A stretch of DNA of 64,000 bases, taken from NCBI GenBank assembly GCA_016292255.1, contig JAEEZZ010000139.1:171-64170 (forward strand). Direction: 5' to 3'. The notes under the pieces are model-generated. The model was given only the letters and a program-made list of their open reading frames with translations. It was not told where the DNA came from and ran no database searches. Source of the stretch: Oscillospiraceae bacterium (GTDB lineage Bacteria > Bacillota > Clostridia > Oscillospirales > Oscillospiraceae). Positions 9,949 to 64,000 of this stretch are shown here, one piece after another; position 1 is the stretch's first letter; each line of letters opens with the position of its first letter. The position numbers were made by a program, and so were the translations under genes.

Positions 9949-12015
9949 TCAACCTCGTTCAGCCAGATAGATCTCCACTCGGTTCTGGATACGCCGGGCA
10001 GCCTCCTCAGCGGTACAGTCGCCGTTAAAGAAAGCCTGGGCTTCCGAATAAACAAAATCCAAAGAAGTGCTCACGTTTAGGAATCGATTTGTTTCTTTTA
10101 GAAGGCAATCTACTGTCTCCATGGAAGCGAGAAAAATCACCTCAGCCTCCGGCACGATTACGGAACTGGACAGGTACTCCTCCGTTCGTTGTGTCTGGTC
10201 GGCTTCGGTCCATTCTCGATTGAGAAACACGGATTCAATTGCGTTTGAAAAGCTTGATTGCGTCCTAATGTATCGGTGCCATCCCTCGTCAAACAAAACC
10301 GTCTCCATAACAGCACGGACGGCACCCCCATCCGTATCCGCTGCGGCTGCCAGATAGAAGAATGCATCCAGGCGTATAGTGCTCAATTCTGGGAAAGGTA
10401 AACTAAAATACTGATAGTTGAAGGCTGCAGCATAAGAATACCGCAGTTGATGGTCAAGCTGAAAAAGAGTGTTTTCTGCTTCTGAATCCGATCCGTTTTT
10501 TTGAAAAGCCGAAGCTTCCTCCGGGGTCTGTGCACACTGGTTGCAGAATCGAAGCAACGCAATGAATTCCGAACTGTCAAAACAGGCAGTATGATTATCA
10601 AAATCGATCCAATGCTGTAAGGATGCCTCAAACCACCTGCTGAACATTGCTTCTTTTGTTGTCTCTCGAAGTGCCTCGGGTTCCTTCTCTTCCAAAAATA
10701 CAGTCAGAGCAGATAAACTATTAAATGTATCTGATTCGACGCAGTAACGGGAGGGCATCAAACTGACACATGGAACCAAAAGTCCTGGCAGACAATATAG
10801 CTTCCCATCTGTCTGAAGCCCATTGATCATATTCTGGTAAAGAGAATCGGACTGGATCATTTCAGGGGCTGAAATCGTATAATCCTGCAATAATCCCTTT
10901 TCCCCATAATTGTTCAGAAGCAGCAGGTCAGAGTCGCCAACGAAATCGATTTCACCGGTCAGGAGGCCGCGATTCAGCGCCTCAGCATCTGTATACACTT
11001 TTTTGTCAAACTTCCATTCCGTGTGGGTTCGGTTGAAATAGGAAATAAATTCCGAAAAGGTCGGGTATTCGCCGATTGTTCCAATCAGTAGTGTCTTCGA
11101 CTCCACCGGGTCGTGTTGCCCGGTTTCCGCTGCCTGTTCGCGGGAATCCAGCACCAAAAGGCTCCGCTTTTCCAGACAGAGGATCGTACTGAAGTCTGGC
11201 ATCAGCACCCGCAGAAGGTTGGCAGAATTCACACCGCAATGGTTCAAATCGGCCACAGGGGAAAAACAGTCGCCCGATAGACGCCACAGCTTCCCTGCTG
11301 AAACAATTAAACCGGTTTCTGGAGGGCAGCAGGATTTTGCATCCAAAAGTTCCGCAGGTAAGGCGAGTCCGTGCTCCGGAGTCAGAGATGTTTCCGTCCC
11401 ATCAAGGAGTAAAAGAACGCCAGAAATCGGTTTATAGCTCGCTGCATCTAAACGGCTTAGGCAAGCAAAAAGGCCGTCTTGTGTTTCAATCAGAGCACGG
11501 GCTTCCCAGTAGTAATCTGCGTCTCTCGGAAGTTCGAGCACGACCCCATTTCGATATAACGCGCTCCCATCGCAAAGCCAGATGGAGTTTGCTACTTGGA
11601 TGAGCTGGATTGGAGCTGATCCGATTCTTGATTTCACTGGAAAGATCGTGCCGTCTTTGGCCCGGATTTCATAGCCATCTTCACCGTCGACGATTTGAAG
11701 CCGTCCGTCTTTTCGGAGGGAAATCACGTATATTTGTTCCATATCGGACACATCAGTCCGGTGAAAGCTGTTGTCTATCCTGTATACGCCATACGATGTG
11801 CTTAGCAGGTATCCGTCGCCTTCCGGCCATATTTCATACAGGCTATCAGCGTCATAGCTGCACGTCTGCCCGTAATAGTCAGGAGTTTCTACAGACGCAA
11901 CGTGGAGAGTCTCTTCCACGGATTTAGAGGGCACAGTCTCATTCTTGCAGGCAGCAAGAAGCACAGCAAGAAAAACTGCCACGCAGAACAGCGTTGAATG
12001 AATGGCAGACTTCAT
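9949..12015 (-). CDS. Lipoprotein: unknown beta-rich N-terminal domain of about 290 aa fused to an ABC solute-binding-protein-like C-terminal half
   Basis: I used the start MKSAIHSTLFCVAVFLAVLLAACKN, which has a lipobox (LAAC). The C-terminal half (LLIGTIGEYPTFSEF...FDKKVYTDAEALNRGLLTGEIDFVGD...) resembles family-1 extracellular solute-binding proteins. The gene is visibly lower in GC than the permease genes to which it is translationally coupled. Confidence 0.65.
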   Translation of the reverse strand: MKSAIHSTLFCVAVFLAVLLAACKNETVPSKSVEETLHVASVETPDYYGQTCSYDADSLYEIWPEGDGYLLSTSYGVYRIDNSFHRTDVSDMEQIYVISLRKDGRLQIVDGEDGYEIRAKDGTIFPVKSRIGSAPIQLIQVANSIWLCDGSALYRNGVVLELPRDADYYWEARALIETQDGLFACLSRLDAASYKPISGVLLLLDGTETSLTPEHGLALPAELLDAKSCCPPETGLIVSAGKLWRLSGDCFSPVADLNHCGVNSANLLRVLMPDFSTILCLEKRSLLVLDSREQAAETGQHDPVESKTLLIGTIGEYPTFSEFISYFNRTHTEWKFDKKVYTDAEALNRGLLTGEIDFVGDSDLLLLNNYGEKGLLQDYTISAPEMIQSDSLYQNMINGLQTDGKLYCLPGLLVPCVSLMPSRYCVESDTFNSLSALTVFLEEKEPEALRETTKEAMFSRWFEASLQHWIDFDNHTACFDSSEFIALLRFCNQCAQTPEEASAFQKNGSDSEAENTLFQLDHQLRYSYAAAFNYQYFSLPFPELSTIRLDAFFYLAAAADTDGGAVRAVMETVLFDEGWHRYIRTQSSFSNAIESVFLNREWTEADQTQRTEEYLSSSVIVPEAEVIFLASMETVDCLLKETNRFLNVSTSLDFVYSEAQAFFNGDCTAEEAARRIQNRVEIYLAERG

Positions 12016-59267: not shown

Positions 59268-59344
59268 GAACATGGAAAAGCAATAAAAAATTTTGTATAA
59301 TCTTACTATTATCCTTGGAATACGGAACGAAAGGGGAGTGCGCC

Positions 59345-60703
59345 ATGTATATCCTTGCCAATGGCAGACTGATCACCCGGGATCCTGCGCTGGGCTATCT
59401 CAAGGACGGCGGCGTCGTCATCCGGGGCCGGAGCATTCTGGATCGGGGCACCACTACCGCGCTGCGAGCCAAATATCCCGAGGCGGAGTTCCTGGACGCC
59501 CGGGGCGGCGTCATCATGCCCGCCTTTATCAACGCTCACACCCATATCTATTCCGCCCTGGCCCGGGGCCTTTCCATCAAGGGCTGCAACGCTTCGAATT
59601 TCTATGAGGTGCTGGACGGCCTGTGGTGGGCCATCGACCGGAAGCTGACGCTGGAGGGCACGAAGGCCTCCGCCGACGCGCTGATGATCGACTGCATCAA
59701 GCAGGGCGTCACCACGATCTTTGATCACCACGCCTCCTACGGGGAGATCCCCGGCAGTCTGCATACCATCGCGGCGTCCGCCAGGCGCTTCGGCCTCCGG
59801 GCCTGCCTCTGCTATGAGGTCTCCGACCGGGACGGGGAGGAGAAAGCCCTCCAGGCGGTGCAGGAGAACGCCGACTTTATCAGCGAATGTGAGCGGGAGA
59901 AGGATCCCATGCTGGCTGCCATGTTCGGCGGCCACGCCCTGTTCACCATCTCCGATAAGACCTTCGACCGGATGGTGGCCGCCAACAACGGCAGGACCGG
60001 CTACCATATCCACGTCTCCGAGGGGATGAACGACGTGTACGACAGCCTGCAAAGCTATGGCCGCCGTCCGGTGCAGCGCCTCCACGACCACGGCATCCTG
60101 GGCCCCAAGACCATTCTGGGCCACTGCATCCACGTCAATTCCGCCGAGATCGAGCTGATCCAAAACACCGATACCATGGTGGTCAACAACCCCGAGTCCA
60201 ACATGGGCAACGCCGTGGGCACCTGCCCGGTGCTCCAGCTCTACAAAAACGGCGTGCTTCTGGGCCTGGGCACCGACGCCTATACCAACGATATGCTGGA
60301 GTCCGTCAAGGCTGCCCTCTGCGCCCAGCGGCAGAACGCCTGCCTGCCCAACGTGGGCTGGTGCGAGGTCACGGATATGCTCTTCCGCAACAACGCCAAA
60401 ATCGGGGCCAGGTATTTCCCGGACGAGCTGGGCGTGCTGAAGCCGGGGGCTGCCGCCGACGTGATCGTCATGGACTACAAGCCCTTCACCCCCTTCTCCG
60501 ACGCCAACATCGACGGCCACATCCTCTTCGGCATGACGGGCCGCCAGTGCCAGACCACCATTGCCGCAGGTCGGATCCTGATGAAGGACCGGGAGCTGGT
60601 AGGGATCGACGAGGAGGCCGAGAACGCCCATATCCTCGAAGCGTCCCGCAAGCTCTGGGGGGATCTGAACGGCTGCGCCTACAACGCGGAGGGCGAACGG
60701 TAG
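59345..60703 (+). CDS. ssnA: SsnA-type amidohydrolase (chlorohydrolase/aminohydrolase family)
   Basis: I used the start MYILANGRLITRD (ATG at 59345). PAFINAHTHIYSALARG...DGLWWAID...IFDHHAS...HVSEG...LGHCIH...LGTDA are motifs of the amidohydrolase superfamily. The gene is adjacent to ygfK, as in E. coli ygfK-ssnA. Confidence 0.8.
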   Translation: MYILANGRLITRDPALGYLKDGGVVIRGRSILDRGTTTALRAKYPEAEFLDARGGVIMPAFINAHTHIYSALARGLSIKGCNASNFYEVLDGLWWAIDRKLTLEGTKASADALMIDCIKQGVTTIFDHHASYGEIPGSLHTIAASARRFGLRACLCYEVSDRDGEEKALQAVQENADFISECEREKDPMLAAMFGGHALFTISDKTFDRMVAANNGRTGYHIHVSEGMNDVYDSLQSYGRRPVQRLHDHGILGPKTILGHCIHVNSAEIELIQNTDTMVVNNPESNMGNAVGTCPVLQLYKNGVLLGLGTDAYTNDMLESVKAALCAQRQNACLPNVGWCEVTDMLFRNNAKIGARYFPDELGVLKPGAAADVIVMDYKPFTPFSDANIDGHILFGMTGRQCQTTIAAGRILMKDRELVGIDEEAENAHILEASRKLWGDLNGCAYNAEGER

Positions 60704-60734
60704 GGGGCGGCGTCCCCGACGCCCCGTCTGTCAA

Positions 60735-60952
60735 AAAGTTGAAAGTTGAAACTGGAAAGTTGAAAGTGGAGGTATCGTTCAAATTGCGATTTGAACGATG
60801 AATGGATAAACGGATGATTTCAGAATACTTTTTCGTTGATTTGAAAATAGCTTGCCCATTCGCGTGAGCTTCTCCTATATCCGTCGTTTCATTTCTGTTT
60901 TTCAAATGGCAATTTGAAAAACTCCACCATTTTCAACTTTCAACTTTCAATT
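60735..60952. repeat. AT-rich palindromic insert (MITE-like or large structured element) between ssnA and ygfK
   Basis: The left arm is AAGTTGAAAGTTGAAACTGGAAAGTTGAAAGTGGAGGTATCGTTCAAATTGCGATTTGAACG. The reverse complement of the right arm is AATTGAAAGTTGAAAGTTGAAAATGGTGGAGTTTTTCAAATTGCCATTTGAAAA. Each arm carries its own perfect 9-bp hairpin (60776-60797 and 60899-20). The composition contrasts sharply with the flanking GC-rich genes. Confidence 0.55.
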
Positions 60953-61034
60953 ATCAATTCGATTGATTCCGCAGTCAGCGATGCGACTTTGCCGCACCCT
61001 TACTCCCCCAATCACATGGACAGGAGGAATCCCT

Positions 61035-64000
61035 ATGTCAGAAAAAATGTACCCCATTCCCTTTGACCGGCTCATGAACTGGGCCCTGGAGGAATATAAA
61101 CGGGAGGGAACTGTTTTCGGCGTCCGTCGCCATTACAGGGCCGACCCGGACAAGACGCTTCCCATCTTCGGCGAACGCATCGAGACCCCCTTCGGCCCCG
61201 CTGCCGGGCCGAACAGCCAGCTTGCCCAGAACCTCATCGCGGCCTACGTTGCCGGGGCGAGGTTCTTTGAGCTGAAGACTGTCCAGAAAATGGACGGCGA
61301 GGAGCTGGCCCGCTGCGTGCCCCGGCCCTGTATCCTGGCCGAGGACGAGGGCTACAATCAGGAATGGTCCACGGAGCTCACCGTGGAGCAGGCCCGGGAC
61401 GAGTATATCAAGGCCTGGTGCGCCCTCAAGGTCCTCTCGGGCCTCTGGGGCCTGGGGGATCCCAACGGCTTCGTTTTCAATATGTCCGTGGGCTACGACC
61501 TGGAGGGGATCCGGGGACCCAAGGTGGACGGCTTCATCGAGGCCATGAAGGATGCCTCTCATACGGCCCAGTTTGCGGAGTGCAGGCGGGTGCTGAAGGC
61601 CCTGCTTCCGGGGCATGAGAGCTGGATCGACGGCATTTCGCCCCGCGTTTCCCGCTCCGTCACCCTCTCCACCCTCCACGGCTGCCCGCCGGAGGAGATC
61701 GAGCGGATCGCAAGCTATCTGATCAACGAAAAGGGCCTGCACACCTTTGTCAAGTGCAACCCCACCATCTTAGGCTACCGCACCGCCCGGGATACCCTGG
61801 ATCAAATGGGCTACGACTACGTGGTCTTCGACGAGCACCACTTCAACGAGGACCTCCAATGGGCCGACGCAGTGCCCATGTTCGAGCGCCTGCGAAAGCT
61901 GGCAGGGGAGAAGGGCCTGGAATTCGGCCTCAAGCTCTCCAACACCTTCCCCGTGGACACCACCCGGGGGGAGCTGCCCAACGACGAGATGTATATGTCC
62001 GGCCGGGCCCTCTTCCCGCTGACCATCGAGATGTGCAGCCGCTTTTCCCGGCAGTTCGGCGGCAGCCTGCGGCTCTCCTACGCCGGGGGCGCGGACTGGT
62101 TCAACTGCGACAAGCTCTTCTCCGCCGGGATCTGGCCCATCACCGTGGCCACCACGATCCTCAAGCCCGGCGGCTACAACCGGCTGGCCCAGCTCTGCGA
62201 GAAGACGGAGGCCCTGCCCTTCGCCCCCTTCACCGGCACGGATACGGCGGCCATTGCGGCCCTCAGTGGGGCCTGCCGCTTCGATCCGCGCCACGTCAAG
62301 CCCGTCAAGCCTCTGCCCAGCCGGAAGTCCGAGGAGCCGGTGCCCTGGTTCAACTGCTTCTCCGCCCCCTGCGAGGGCGGCTGCCCCATCCGCCAGGATA
62401 TCCCCGAATACCTGGTCCTGTGTGAGCAGGGGCGCTATGAGGAGGCCCTGCGGCTGATCGTGGAGAAGAACCCCCTGCCCTTCATCACGGGCACGATCTG
62501 CGCCCACCGCTGCATGACCAAGTGCTCCCGCGGCTTCTACGAGGATCCGGTGCATATCCGGGCCGTGAAGCTGCTGGCCGCGGAGCGGGGCTGCGACGCC
62601 CTGCTGCGCTCCATTCGGCGCCCTGCCCCCGTCCCCGGGAAGCGGGTCGCCATCGTGGGTGGCGGCCCCACGGGCATGGCCGCGGCCTTCTTCCTGAGCC
62701 GGGCCGGGATCGCCTGCACCGTCTTTGAGCGGGAGGCCAAGCTGGGCGGCATCGTCCGCCAGGTCATACCCGGCTTCCGCATCCCGGAGGAGACCATCGA
62801 CAACGACGCGATCCTGATCGCCGCCTACGGCGCGGAGATCCGCACCAACACCGAGGCCCCCACCGTCGAGGCGTTGAAGGCGCAGGGCTACACCCACGTC
62901 TTCTACGCCGTGGGCGCCTGGAAGCCCGGCCGCCTGGAGCTGCCCGGAGCCGTCAAGCCGGTCATCCCCTGGATGAAGGCCCGGAAATCCGGCGCGGATC
63001 AGACAGTCCTGGGGAACGTGGCCGTGATCGGCGGCGGCAACACCGCCATGGACGCGGCGCGGCTTGCCGTCCGGGAGGGCGCAAGCTCCGTCACCCTGGT
63101 CTACCGCCGCACCAAGCGCTATATGCCTGCCGACGCCCGGGAGCTGGAGCTGGCCATGGCGGACGGCGTCTGCTTCCTGGAGCTGGCCGCCCCGGTGAAG
63201 CAAGAGGGCGGAACGCTGATCTGTGAGAGGATGCAGCTGGGCAGGCCGGACGCCTCCGGCCGCCGCAGCCCCGTTCCCACCGGAGAACTGCTGGAGATCC
63301 CCTGCGACCTGGTGATCTCCGCCGTGGGCGAGCAGGTGGATCCCGCCCCCTTTACCGCCTCCGGCATTGCGCTGGACGCCAAGGGCCGCCCCGCCTTCCG
63401 CACCAATCTGGAGAACGTCTACGCCGGCGGCGACGCCCTGCGGGGCCCTGCCACCGTGGTGGAGGGCATTGCCGATGCGGCCCGCTTTGCCGAGGCTGTG
63501 ATCGGGGAGTCCCACAGCTTCCGGCTGCCGGAAGCCGCCCGGATCACCTTGGGAGAGGCCGCAGCCCGGAAGGGCGTGCTGGCCCCGGCCGGAGGGGCTG
63601 AGCGGGAGGGCAGGCGCTGCCTGCACTGCAATACCCTCTGCGAAAACTGCGTGGACGTCTGCCCCAACCGGGCCAACGTACCCGTCACCCTGCCCGACGG
63701 CTCCGTCCAGATCCTGCACCTGGACGCCCTGTGCAACGAGTGCGGCAACTGCACCGCCTTCTGCCCCTATGCCTCTCAGCCCTGCAGGGACAAGCTGACC
63801 CTGTTCCATACGGCGGAGGCCTTCGCGGATTCCGCCAACTGCGGCTTCTGCTTCCTGCCGGAGGGCCGGGTCCGGGTCCGGCTGCAGGACGGCGTCCGGG
63901 ATCTGGACGCCTCGGGCCTGGCATCCCTGCCCGAGATGCTGGGGGAGATGATCGAAACTGTCCGCGACCGCTACCCCTGGCTCCGGACGGACACAACACT
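61035..64000 (+). CDS. ygfK: YgfK-type putative selenate-reductase / oxidoreductase subunit (DPD-like TIM barrel, Fe-S, GltD-like FAD/NAD domain, ferredoxin). 3-prime end is beyond the window.
   Basis: This ORF is not in the supplied track because it runs off the window end. I translated it by hand. The ATG at 61035 follows AGGAGG: MSEKMYPIPFDRLMNWALEEYKREGTVFGV...FGPAAGPNSQLAQN.... The same frame checks out at 61752 (KCNPTILGY...), 62340 (VPWFNCFSAPCEGGCPIRQDIPEY...VAIVGGGPTGMAAAFFL) and 63621 (LHCNTLCENCVDVCPNRA...CNECGNCTAFCP). Confidence 0.8.
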   Translation, partial: MSEKMYPIPFDRLMNWALEEYKREGTVFGVRRHYRADPDKTLPIFGERIETPFGPAAGPNSQLAQNLIAAYVAGARFFELKTVQKMDGEELARCVPRPCILAEDEGYNQEWSTELTVEQARDEYIKAWCALKVLSGLWGLGDPNGFVFNMSVGYDLEGIRGPKVDGFIEAMKDASHTAQFAECRRVLKALLPGHESWIDGISPRVSRSVTLSTLHGCPPEEIERIASYLINEKGLHTFVKCNPTILGYRTARDTLDQMGYDYVVFDEHHFNEDLQWADAVPMFERLRKLAGEKGLEFGLKLSNTFPVDTTRGELPNDEMYMSGRALFPLTIEMCSRFSRQFGGSLRLSYAGGADWFNCDKLFSAGIWPITVATTILKPGGYNRLAQLCEKTEALPFAPFTGTDTAAIAALSGACRFDPRHVKPVKPLPSRKSEEPVPWFNCFSAPCEGGCPIRQDIPEYLVLCEQGRYEEALRLIVEKNPLPFITGTICAHRCMTKCSRGFYEDPVHIRAVKLLAAERGCDALLRSIRRPAPVPGKRVAIVGGGPTGMAAAFFLSRAGIACTVFEREAKLGGIVRQVIPGFRIPEETIDNDAILIAAYGAEIRTNTEAPTVEALKAQGYTHVFYAVGAWKPGRLELPGAVKPVIPWMKARKSGADQTVLGNVAVIGGGNTAMDAARLAVREGASSVTLVYRRTKRYMPADARELELAMADGVCFLELAAPVKQEGGTLICERMQLGRPDASGRRSPVPTGELLEIPCDLVISAVGEQVDPAPFTASGIALDAKGRPAFRTNLENVYAGGDALRGPATVVEGIADAARFAEAVIGESHSFRLPEAARITLGEAAARKGVLAPAGGAEREGRRCLHCNTLCENCVDVCPNRANVPVTLPDGSVQILHLDALCNECGNCTAFCPYASQPCRDKLTLFHTAEAFADSANCGFCFLPEGRVRVRLQDGVRDLDASGLASLPEMLGEMIETVRDRYPWLRTDTT

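Follow-up and report, generated by a model that had tools for sequence, protein, structure and literature searches.

A heptamer-armed palindrome between ssnA and ygfK is probably a decayed, gene-less member of an insertion-element family of one genus of uncultured rumen and gut Oscillospiraceae

The window, that is the whole stretch of 64,000 nucleotides analysed here, lies on contig C162 of a 2.94-Mb MAG (G000; 168 contigs, 86% complete, 58% GC). Towards its right end it carries the genes ssnA and ygfK, and the profile matches to SsnA and YgfK agree with the names given to them in the original prediction. A spacer of 331 bp separates the ssnA stop codon (TAG, 60701-60703) from the ygfK start codon (ATG at 61035), and the ygfK reading frame continues past the window edge. 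The features of the locus are listed below, A and B being the two subfamilies into which the full-length copies of the element fall by alignment.

59315-60703, + strand: ssnA, putative aminohydrolase SsnA, the upstream gene (NF005540, 609 bits; TIGR03314, 540 bits; ORF listing).
60704-60725, + strand: GC-rich native hairpin GGGGCGGCGTCCCCGACGCCCC right behind the ssnA stop codon (sequence and fold).
60725-60737, + strand: left terminus, or shell, CGTCTGTCAAAAA, homologous to the subfamily B terminus CAGCGTGTCAAAAAA (alignments of 12 full-length copies and with L022 and C3).
60738-60772, + strand: left array of five heptamers, GTTGAAA, GTTGAAA, CTGGAAA, GTTGAAA and GTGGAGG (arm profile, E = 7e-18).
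60774-60799, + strand: left hairpin module ATCGTTCAAAT-TGCG-ATTTGAACGAT, with a perfect 11-bp stem and the apex CAAAT-NGCN-ATTTG.
60800-60896, no strand assigned: non-coding core of 97 bp, held in common only with the subfamily A copies (C3, L022).
60897-60922, + strand: right hairpin module GTTTTTCAAAT-GGCA-ATTTGAAAAAC, with a perfect 11-bp stem and an apex identical to that of the left module.
60924-60958, + strand: right inverted array of TTTCAAC-type units complementary to the left array (arm profile, E = 2.5e-16).
60959-60977, + strand: right-hand shell remnant (..CGATTGATTCCGCAGTCA; three-way alignment of the window copy, L022 and C3).
60978-61034, + strand: native spacer with the ygfK ribosome-binding site AGGAGG at 61022-61027, conserved with L022, L021 and L023.
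61035-63998, + strand: ygfK, putative selenate reductase subunit YgfK, the downstream gene (TIGR03315, 1231 bits).

The two GC-rich genes are indeed separated by a sharply AT-rich element, with a GC content of 0.39-0.44 in the block against 0.60-0.73 on both flanks. A repeat finder recovers its inverted arms at 60739-60795 and 60901-60957 (57 nt, 81% complementary, 105 nt apart). Each arm contains a perfect hairpin, as had been noticed, with a stem of 11 bp (60774-60784/60789-60799 and 60897-60907/60912-60922) and not of 9 bp. With at most two mismatches allowed, the word GTTGAAAGTTGAAA is found at five places in the 64-kb window, every one of them within the element, at an expectation of 0.29, and none of 100 shuffles matched this count. 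With the GC drop, the inverted arms and the GTTGAAA heptamers all computed, the AT-rich palindromic insert between ssnA and ygfK is real. Its bounds, placed at 60726-60955 by the original prediction, are moved by homology with paralogs and with an ortholog to about 60725 and about 60977, the right end being truncated. The element is about 250 bp long, contains no ORF and has terminal inverted repeats, which are the size and make-up of a MITE. Its left end adjoins the GC hairpin at 60704-60725, and the ygfK ribosome-binding site is intact.

The SsnA loci fetched from 80 Oscillospiraceae genomes permitted the spacer comparison with relatives lacking the insert that had been suggested for this locus. 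In three of the four closest genomes (SsnA identity 86-91%) the ssnA-ygfK spacer measures 62 bp (L021), 57 bp (L023) and 53 bp (L024), and it is 0-75 bp long in most other loci compared. The fourth close relative, L022 of genome G008, has the nearest YgfK (92.7% identity) and a spacer of 485 bp, filled by an orthologous copy with an intact right end and by a nested element. At empty sites a single GC hairpin stands behind the stop codon and is followed by the ribosome-binding site; at filled sites the element begins directly after the hairpin. The hairpin of L022 is the same as that at 60704-60725 and a comparable single one is present at the empty site of L023, and this native hairpin was probably the insertion target. 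The comparison shows that the element was inserted directly 3' of the ssnA GC hairpin before this genome and G008 diverged, in their common ancestor. According to the three-way alignment, the window copy lacks about 35 bp that are present in L022 and C3, the right terminus CTTTGRCAGTCTG included; this loss came later than the insertion, and the truncated copy is probably immobile.

Other insertions have been recorded at the same junction and in related elements. The nested element of L022 (G008:C14; also L111) is 124 bp long, sits in the loop of the right hairpin and is flanked by an 8-bp duplication, ATGGCAAT; with the ends GTATCTATTCAG and CTGAACAGATAG, it contains an inverted pair of GTAG-headed, GC-rich palindromes and is REPIN-like. 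A relative of it lies in the right array of another heptamer element, L121 (G008:C5). The spacers of L033, L038, L039, L042 (about 420-520 bp), L045, L076 and L091 contain inserts with small ORFs that have no relation to the heptamer element, among them a group encoding a hydrophobic protein of about 140 aa, and at L027 the spacer is filled by a RAYT-like fragment with REPs similar to those on contig C15. The ssnA-ygfK junction thus seems to tolerate insertions repeatedly.

Multiple copies in this genome and its relatives, named in the original prediction as the mark of a MITE, have been found. A 246-bp query returned about 12 full-length copies from its own genome, together with many places where only an arm is present, and the arm profile gave 121 matches there. 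In this genome subfamily A has two members, the window copy and its paralog on contig C3, at 82% identity; subfamily B comprises 9-10 copies of about 280 bp that are mutually 86-97% identical. The two subfamilies show 61-68% identity overall, and the link between them is drawn from their shared arms and ends and not from the core. The true ends lie outside the heptamer arrays, on the left as CAGCGTGTCAAAAAAG and on the right as ...CTTTGACAGTCTG, beyond an additional small hairpin; the window copy keeps the left one, CGTCTGTCAAAAAG, from about 60725. The family was detected in 17 of 25 sampled genomes of the same genus and in none of 16 genomes of other families of the order, and shell-bearing copies are restricted to four genomes.

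Copies range in size from about 80 to about 300 bp and share a modular plan. It starts with four or five heptamers in tandem, the word being GTTGAAA, ATTGAGA or some variant; in most copies a hairpin follows, then a core that differs between copies, and finally the hairpin and array in mirror image. The array lengths vary among copies. Across 40 distinct hairpin sequences of this genome the apex CAAAT-NGCN-ATTTG is nearly invariant, and the six outer stem pairs differ between copies with complementarity kept. In these hairpins 97.5% of cells are paired, a percentage that is partly circular since the sequences were gathered through a palindromy filter, and 74 double-sided changes fall in 8 of the 11 stem pairs. 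What the hairpins do show is an apex that stays fixed while the stem sequence is free to vary.

Several individual copies deserve separate mention. A complete subfamily B copy is located on the same contig (C162:71045-71317), about 7 kb past the window end and about 10 kb downstream of the window element. At C127:14486-14829 (G000) three arm-like arrays follow one another in the same orientation at a spacing of about 155 bp, where inverted pairs are usual. The heptamer elements at C101:1-252, C130:9991-10208 and C146:1-266 are each interrupted by a different multi-copy IS, the interiors of which are absent from the MAG and the ends of which form 141-bp overlaps common to several contig ends; AT-rich heptamer elements may be preferred or tolerated IS targets. 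In the metagenome contig L194 (JAEEGJ010006828.1) a single subfamily B element has the left flank of the C136 copy on one side and the right flank of the C119 copy on the other; either two copies have recombined in another strain or the assembly is chimeric.

Arms of the same type also enclose a gene. The full-size relatives carry, in place of the core, a PF05635/TIGR02436 four-helix-bundle gene of about 115-125 aa. The arm profile found window-type arms around such a gene at L144 (G003) and L145 (G004); at L144 the matches lie on either side of the gene (E = 8e-18 and 2e-14), and the window arms are 85-87% identical to those of L144 over 60 nt (E = 4e-17 and 2e-15). The order at L144 is an array, the hairpin TTTTGCAGATTGCCATCTGCAAAA, a leader with a ribosome-binding site, an ORF of 118 aa, the hairpin GTCGTTCAAATGGCAATTTGAACGAC and the inverted array. 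The L144 ORF matches PF05635 (1.8e-30) and TIGR02436 (1e-31), with the pentameric 2RLD as a PDB homolog (4e-34). We know of no enzymatic activity for PF05635 proteins. The core of the window copy contains no remnant of a PF05635 gene at the protein or DNA level and has no detectable homology to the leader or trailer of the full-length gene-bearing elements. At the sequence level the window copy is a gene-less relative of the PF05635 elements, and descent from them by deletion is no more than a possibility.

PF05635 itself occurs in 19 of 28 genomes of the genus, with 12 matches in the present one. Most of the copies here lie between inverted arrays of a tandem word or have a complete array palindrome just upstream, and every PF05635 locus of this genome has a word of its own. 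Of the 40 PF05635 genes of the genus, 27 lie within an inverted repeat that exceeds the 99th percentile obtained from 400 random segments, and nearly all of these repeats have a period of 7. Closely related PF05635 proteins go with identical words or words differing by one letter, a co-inheritance that could reflect orthologous positions and not co-mobility. One pair of loci occupies the same position, after a gene ending in ...YDSFVK*: at L144 (G003:C41) stands the intact GTTGAAA-armed PF05635 element, and at C115:18033-18422 (G000) a decayed one with an in-frame TAA, a sign that the gene-bearing form was inherited vertically and has decayed.

The traces left by insertion were analysed in 16 complete shell-bearing copies, comparing same-locus flanks with all 240 cross-locus pairs. 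Seven copies (L113, C136, C7, C30, L165, L117 and L118) score 13-34.5, above every control (maximum 10), and three further ones are marginal at 8-9.5. The right-hand duplicate starts 0-3 nt past the right terminus in all ten copies with any signal. In subfamily B the duplications comprise 13-37 bp of a terminator hairpin and are variable in length, and several copies have one locus-specific GC-rich hairpin on both flanks. The clearest case is L113 (G020), in which AAAAAAAGTCCGCTGACACAAGCCAGCGGACTTTTTT stops 2 nt before the left terminus and recurs directly after the right terminus, repeating 36 of 37 nt of a bidirectional terminator; of its surroundings, other species conserve only the upstream coding region. 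For all subfamily B copies, relatives at species level proved too diverged to yield an empty site. Differences between duplicate hairpins concentrate in the loops and spare the stems, as would be expected if both hairpins stay under selection as terminators. By eye, the left terminus seems to point toward the T-run of the terminator in several copies, a bias that carries no weight because most of these terminators are bidirectional. Judging from the filled sites, insertion of subfamily B next to a terminator-type hairpin duplicates the whole hairpin.

Target-site duplications, the search for which had been proposed at the outset, are therefore found only in part of the family: as these long hairpin duplications of subfamily B, with none recognisable at the window copy or L022 (score 5). 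Short duplications of fixed length, as left by MITEs, were not found. A flank duplication is likewise absent at the subfamily A copy C3, and its absence at C3 and L022 fits their greater age. The mode of insertion at ssnA-ygfK would be that of subfamily B, from which it is inferred and which is only 61-68% identical to subfamily A overall.

Candidates for the enzyme that moves the element were sought through the arms, the ends and the protein profiles. No transposase lies between any pair of arms detected by the arm profile in this genome. The IS30-type transposase profile NF033563 gave a single partial match across the 28 genus genomes, the genome of the window having none, and an IS30/IS1630-type parent was rejected as essentially absent from the genus. 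The solo arms at the ends of C101, C130 and C146, considered as parts of an autonomous parent, proved to be the heptamer elements split by unrelated multi-copy ISs. A metagenome scan for the outer terminus returned only known copies and contigs of the same organism. All genomes compared are MAGs and incomplete, so the absence of an enzyme, or of an autonomous IS with the same ends, is weak evidence.

Several other partners were dismissed as well. A reverse transcriptase, by analogy with Avd in DGRs, occurs in 14 of 28 genomes and is missing from the shell-bearing G007; the RT matches of the own genome belong to an RT-Cas1 fusion or to an RT that is conserved and single-copy. A Cas1/casposase-type integrase is present in 7 of 28 genomes and in just one of the four shell-bearing ones. 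Nothing supported a resemblance of the ATTGAAAG words to CRISPR tags, which was also considered. The RAYT on contig C15 carries its own REPs, GTAGGGGCGGCCATCGGCCGCC, and was rejected as the mover. That locus (C15:1290-2220, G000) is a canonical REP/RAYT locus, with a Y1-transposase-like ORF at C15:1586-2059 and several REP copies of this type on both sides. The RT-Cas1 frame is found at C52:10145-11713 (G000), where RVT_1 (10145-10762) and Cas1 (10883-11713) share one open frame of 638 aa; RT-Cas1 fusions like this one are associated with type III CRISPR adaptation.

The mRNA-sense strand of 60704-60990 is predicted to form two structures, first the native ssnA hairpin and then a single long hairpin across the whole element (-101.4 kcal/mol, z = -6.9; opposite strand -88.4 kcal/mol, z = -5.0). 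The scans detected no forward promoter-like or terminator-like site in the element. Since neither is predicted, ygfK probably still relies on read-through from ssnA. Rfam gave no relevant match (Gut-1 included), at E up to 10 for this region of the window and up to 0.1 for five other members. The element would be co-transcribed with ssnA and ygfK and fold into one long, mostly double-stranded hairpin. By analogy with the rRNA intervening sequences, its stem may be a substrate of RNase III, which would cut the hairpin and uncouple the stability of the two cistrons.

Taken together, the segment 60725-60977 is probably a decayed, gene-less member of a palindromic insertion-element family confined to one genus of uncultured rumen and gut Oscillospiraceae. 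The original reading as a MITE or RUP/BOX-type element inserted in an operon was right in substance, the element being multi-copy, dispersed, non-coding, genus-restricted and missing from the site in relatives. The smallness, copy number, mobility and non-coding nature implied by the name MITE stand; a transposase parent and a short fixed duplication do not. The departure from a classical MITE lies in the missing transposase parent, in the PF05635 gene found in place of a transposase and in the long hairpin duplications. Nevertheless, the outer ends CAGnnTGTCAAA ... TTTGACAGnCTG could be the TIRs of a DDE IS missing from the incomplete MAGs, the mover might be an IS30/IS1630-like enzyme cutting both sides of palindromic targets, and the heptamer-hairpin palindrome would then be a captured passenger. 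Such an origin accords with the ends, which form a 13/16 inverted repeat with TG..CA-type motifs at the tips, with the 86-97% identity among subfamily B copies over their full length, as after a transposition burst, and with the documented long duplications of IS1630 (IS30 family) that are bounded by inverted repeats; MAGs, moreover, lose multi-copy ISs, and several contigs here end in the 141-bp overlaps of unassembled repeats. We consider it unlikely, as the only genus genome with an IS30-type match lacks the element, the shell motif never occurs without the heptamer arrays, the arms in this genome and the terminus scan led to no transposase or new copy, and such arms were found to enclose no genes other than those of PF05635.

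The remaining explanations fare considerably worse. That the palindromes arose independently in place at many intergenic hairpins, through slippage and hairpin-templated repair, would account for the private heptamer word of each PF05635 locus and for the differing array lengths, and Coxiella strains do vary in heptamer copy number. Nonetheless, unrelated loci share 86-97% identity over about 280 bp, non-repetitive core and shell included, the window copy and C3 have a unique core in common (82%), and the boundaries are sharp and accompanied by flank duplications; the shared non-repetitive cores largely refute building in place for this family, which makes it very improbable. The alternative put forward at the outset, a structured leader RNA or a twin operator dedicated to ygfK and bound by a dimeric repressor at TTCAAAT-N4-ATTTGAA, draws on the two copies of a palindromic 18-mer directly upstream of ygfK and on the strong fold. 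It is already contradicted, and highly improbable, given that the same modules stand at more than 40 unrelated loci, that the closest relatives have an empty site yet keep the gene pair and the ribosome-binding site, that the Rfam scan yielded no family, and that the outer stem varies while remaining complementary, which does not suit a sequence-specific operator. A REP/REPIN-type element moved by a RAYT (Y1) transposase would share the architecture of a palindromic doublet, and Y1_Tnp matches occur in 4 of 4 shell-bearing genomes against 8 of 24 others. However, the Y1 matches of the genus are a mixed set, most of them weak, long duplications are not left behind when REPs or REPINs move, and the RAYT of C15 is flanked by GC-rich, GTAG-type REPs unrelated to the heptamer elements; contradicted already by that locus, this explanation is the most remote of all.

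For the preferred reading, a decayed insertion element, the odd AT-rich block within a conserved gene pair of selenium-dependent purine catabolism is a passenger and not a regulator. Dozens of hairpins of about 100 kcal/mol in operon spacers could affect mRNA processing in these rumen bacteria. A broader interpretation can be offered only tentatively and is, in our estimation, not the likely one: PF05635 (Avd-like) genes and heptamer palindromes would constitute one widespread selfish class that targets nucleic-acid hairpins, with the window element as a gene-less rider. Its targets would be the tips of rRNA helices for the classical intervening sequences and, for the elements described here, the terminator hairpins of mRNA spacers. 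Integration would involve a step that measures structure and cuts on either side of a hairpin, thereby duplicating it; the apex CAAAT-NGCN-ATTTG and the heptamer arrays would be the recognition sites, read by an integrase or by the PF05635 pentamer together with a host enzyme. The literature search found no paper on PF05635/heptamer elements outside rRNA or on their miniatures, and the exact sequence also gave no match. New here are the arm homology between miniature and gene-bearing forms, the genus-wide statistics and the duplication of terminator hairpins.

Among known systems, the arrays of Xanthomonas (GGGAATC) and Nostoc (GGGGAYT) are also tandem repeats with a period of 7, enriched between co-directional genes near stops and starts (PMC4692102). 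In contrast to the heptamers described here, they are G-rich and have been studied as quadruplex formers, and they are not described as inverted pairs around hairpins or a PF05635 gene (PMC4692102). The REP/REPIN-RAYT systems (PMC3116915) resemble the present family in their abundant intergenic palindromic doublets, long hairpins and a single-copy protein gene flanked by repeats. They differ in the partner, a Y1 transposase in place of PF05635, and in the repeats, which lack heptamer arrays and consist of short GC-rich GTAG palindromes; moreover, a separate canonical REP/RAYT system is present in this genome.

The MITEs RUP, BOX, Correia and bcr1 (PMC3184786) are likewise small, non-coding, dispersed and intergenic, have TIRs and a strong predicted RNA hairpin, and often lie in operons. 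The heptamer family is distinguished from them by arms that are tandem heptamer arrays, by the lack of a found transposase-encoding parent and by flank duplications of 13-37 bp, variable and located on a hairpin, where MITEs have a short fixed TA or 2-9 bp. Variable-length duplications of an inverted repeat, 16-26 bp long, are described for IS1630 of Mycoplasma fermentans (IS30 family; Calcutt et al. 1999, cited in PMC2853133 and PMC3317919). Subfamily B does the same at its target, the feature being not visible at the window copy, whereas IS1630 is an IS of 1.2-1.4 kb encoding an IS30 transposase, a gene found associated with none of the heptamer elements.

The closest likeness in design is to the 23S rRNA intervening sequences (IVS) of Coxiella burnetii, Leptospira and others (PMC4990558), palindromic inserts with a long stem containing tandem heptamers. 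The Coxiella IVS is a 428-nt palindromic insert in which an S23p (PF05635) ORF is preceded by a tandem run of three or four GACAGAT heptamers; RNase III cuts in its stem, and the heptamer copy number differs between strains (PMC4990558). Both elements are AT-richer than the host, both have, where an ORF is present, the PF05635 "S23p" four-helix bundle, which is lost or decayed in both, and both show a sporadic distribution suggesting mobility. There are also clear differences. The window element lies in the ssnA-ygfK mRNA spacer and not in helix 45 or 25 of rRNA, has no ORF, and possesses additional fixed-apex hairpin modules and an outer shell; its family has dozens of copies per genome; and excision by RNase III, proven for the IVS, may be supposed for it by comparison. 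To our knowledge, the origin of the 23S rRNA IVS and the role of the S23p/PF05635 gene have been open questions for more than 30 years. Here the PF05635 gene and the heptamer-stem design occur many times per genome outside rRNA, together with gene-less miniatures, and the hairpin duplication of subfamily B offers a tangible case, present in many copies, in which to study the movement of such elements.
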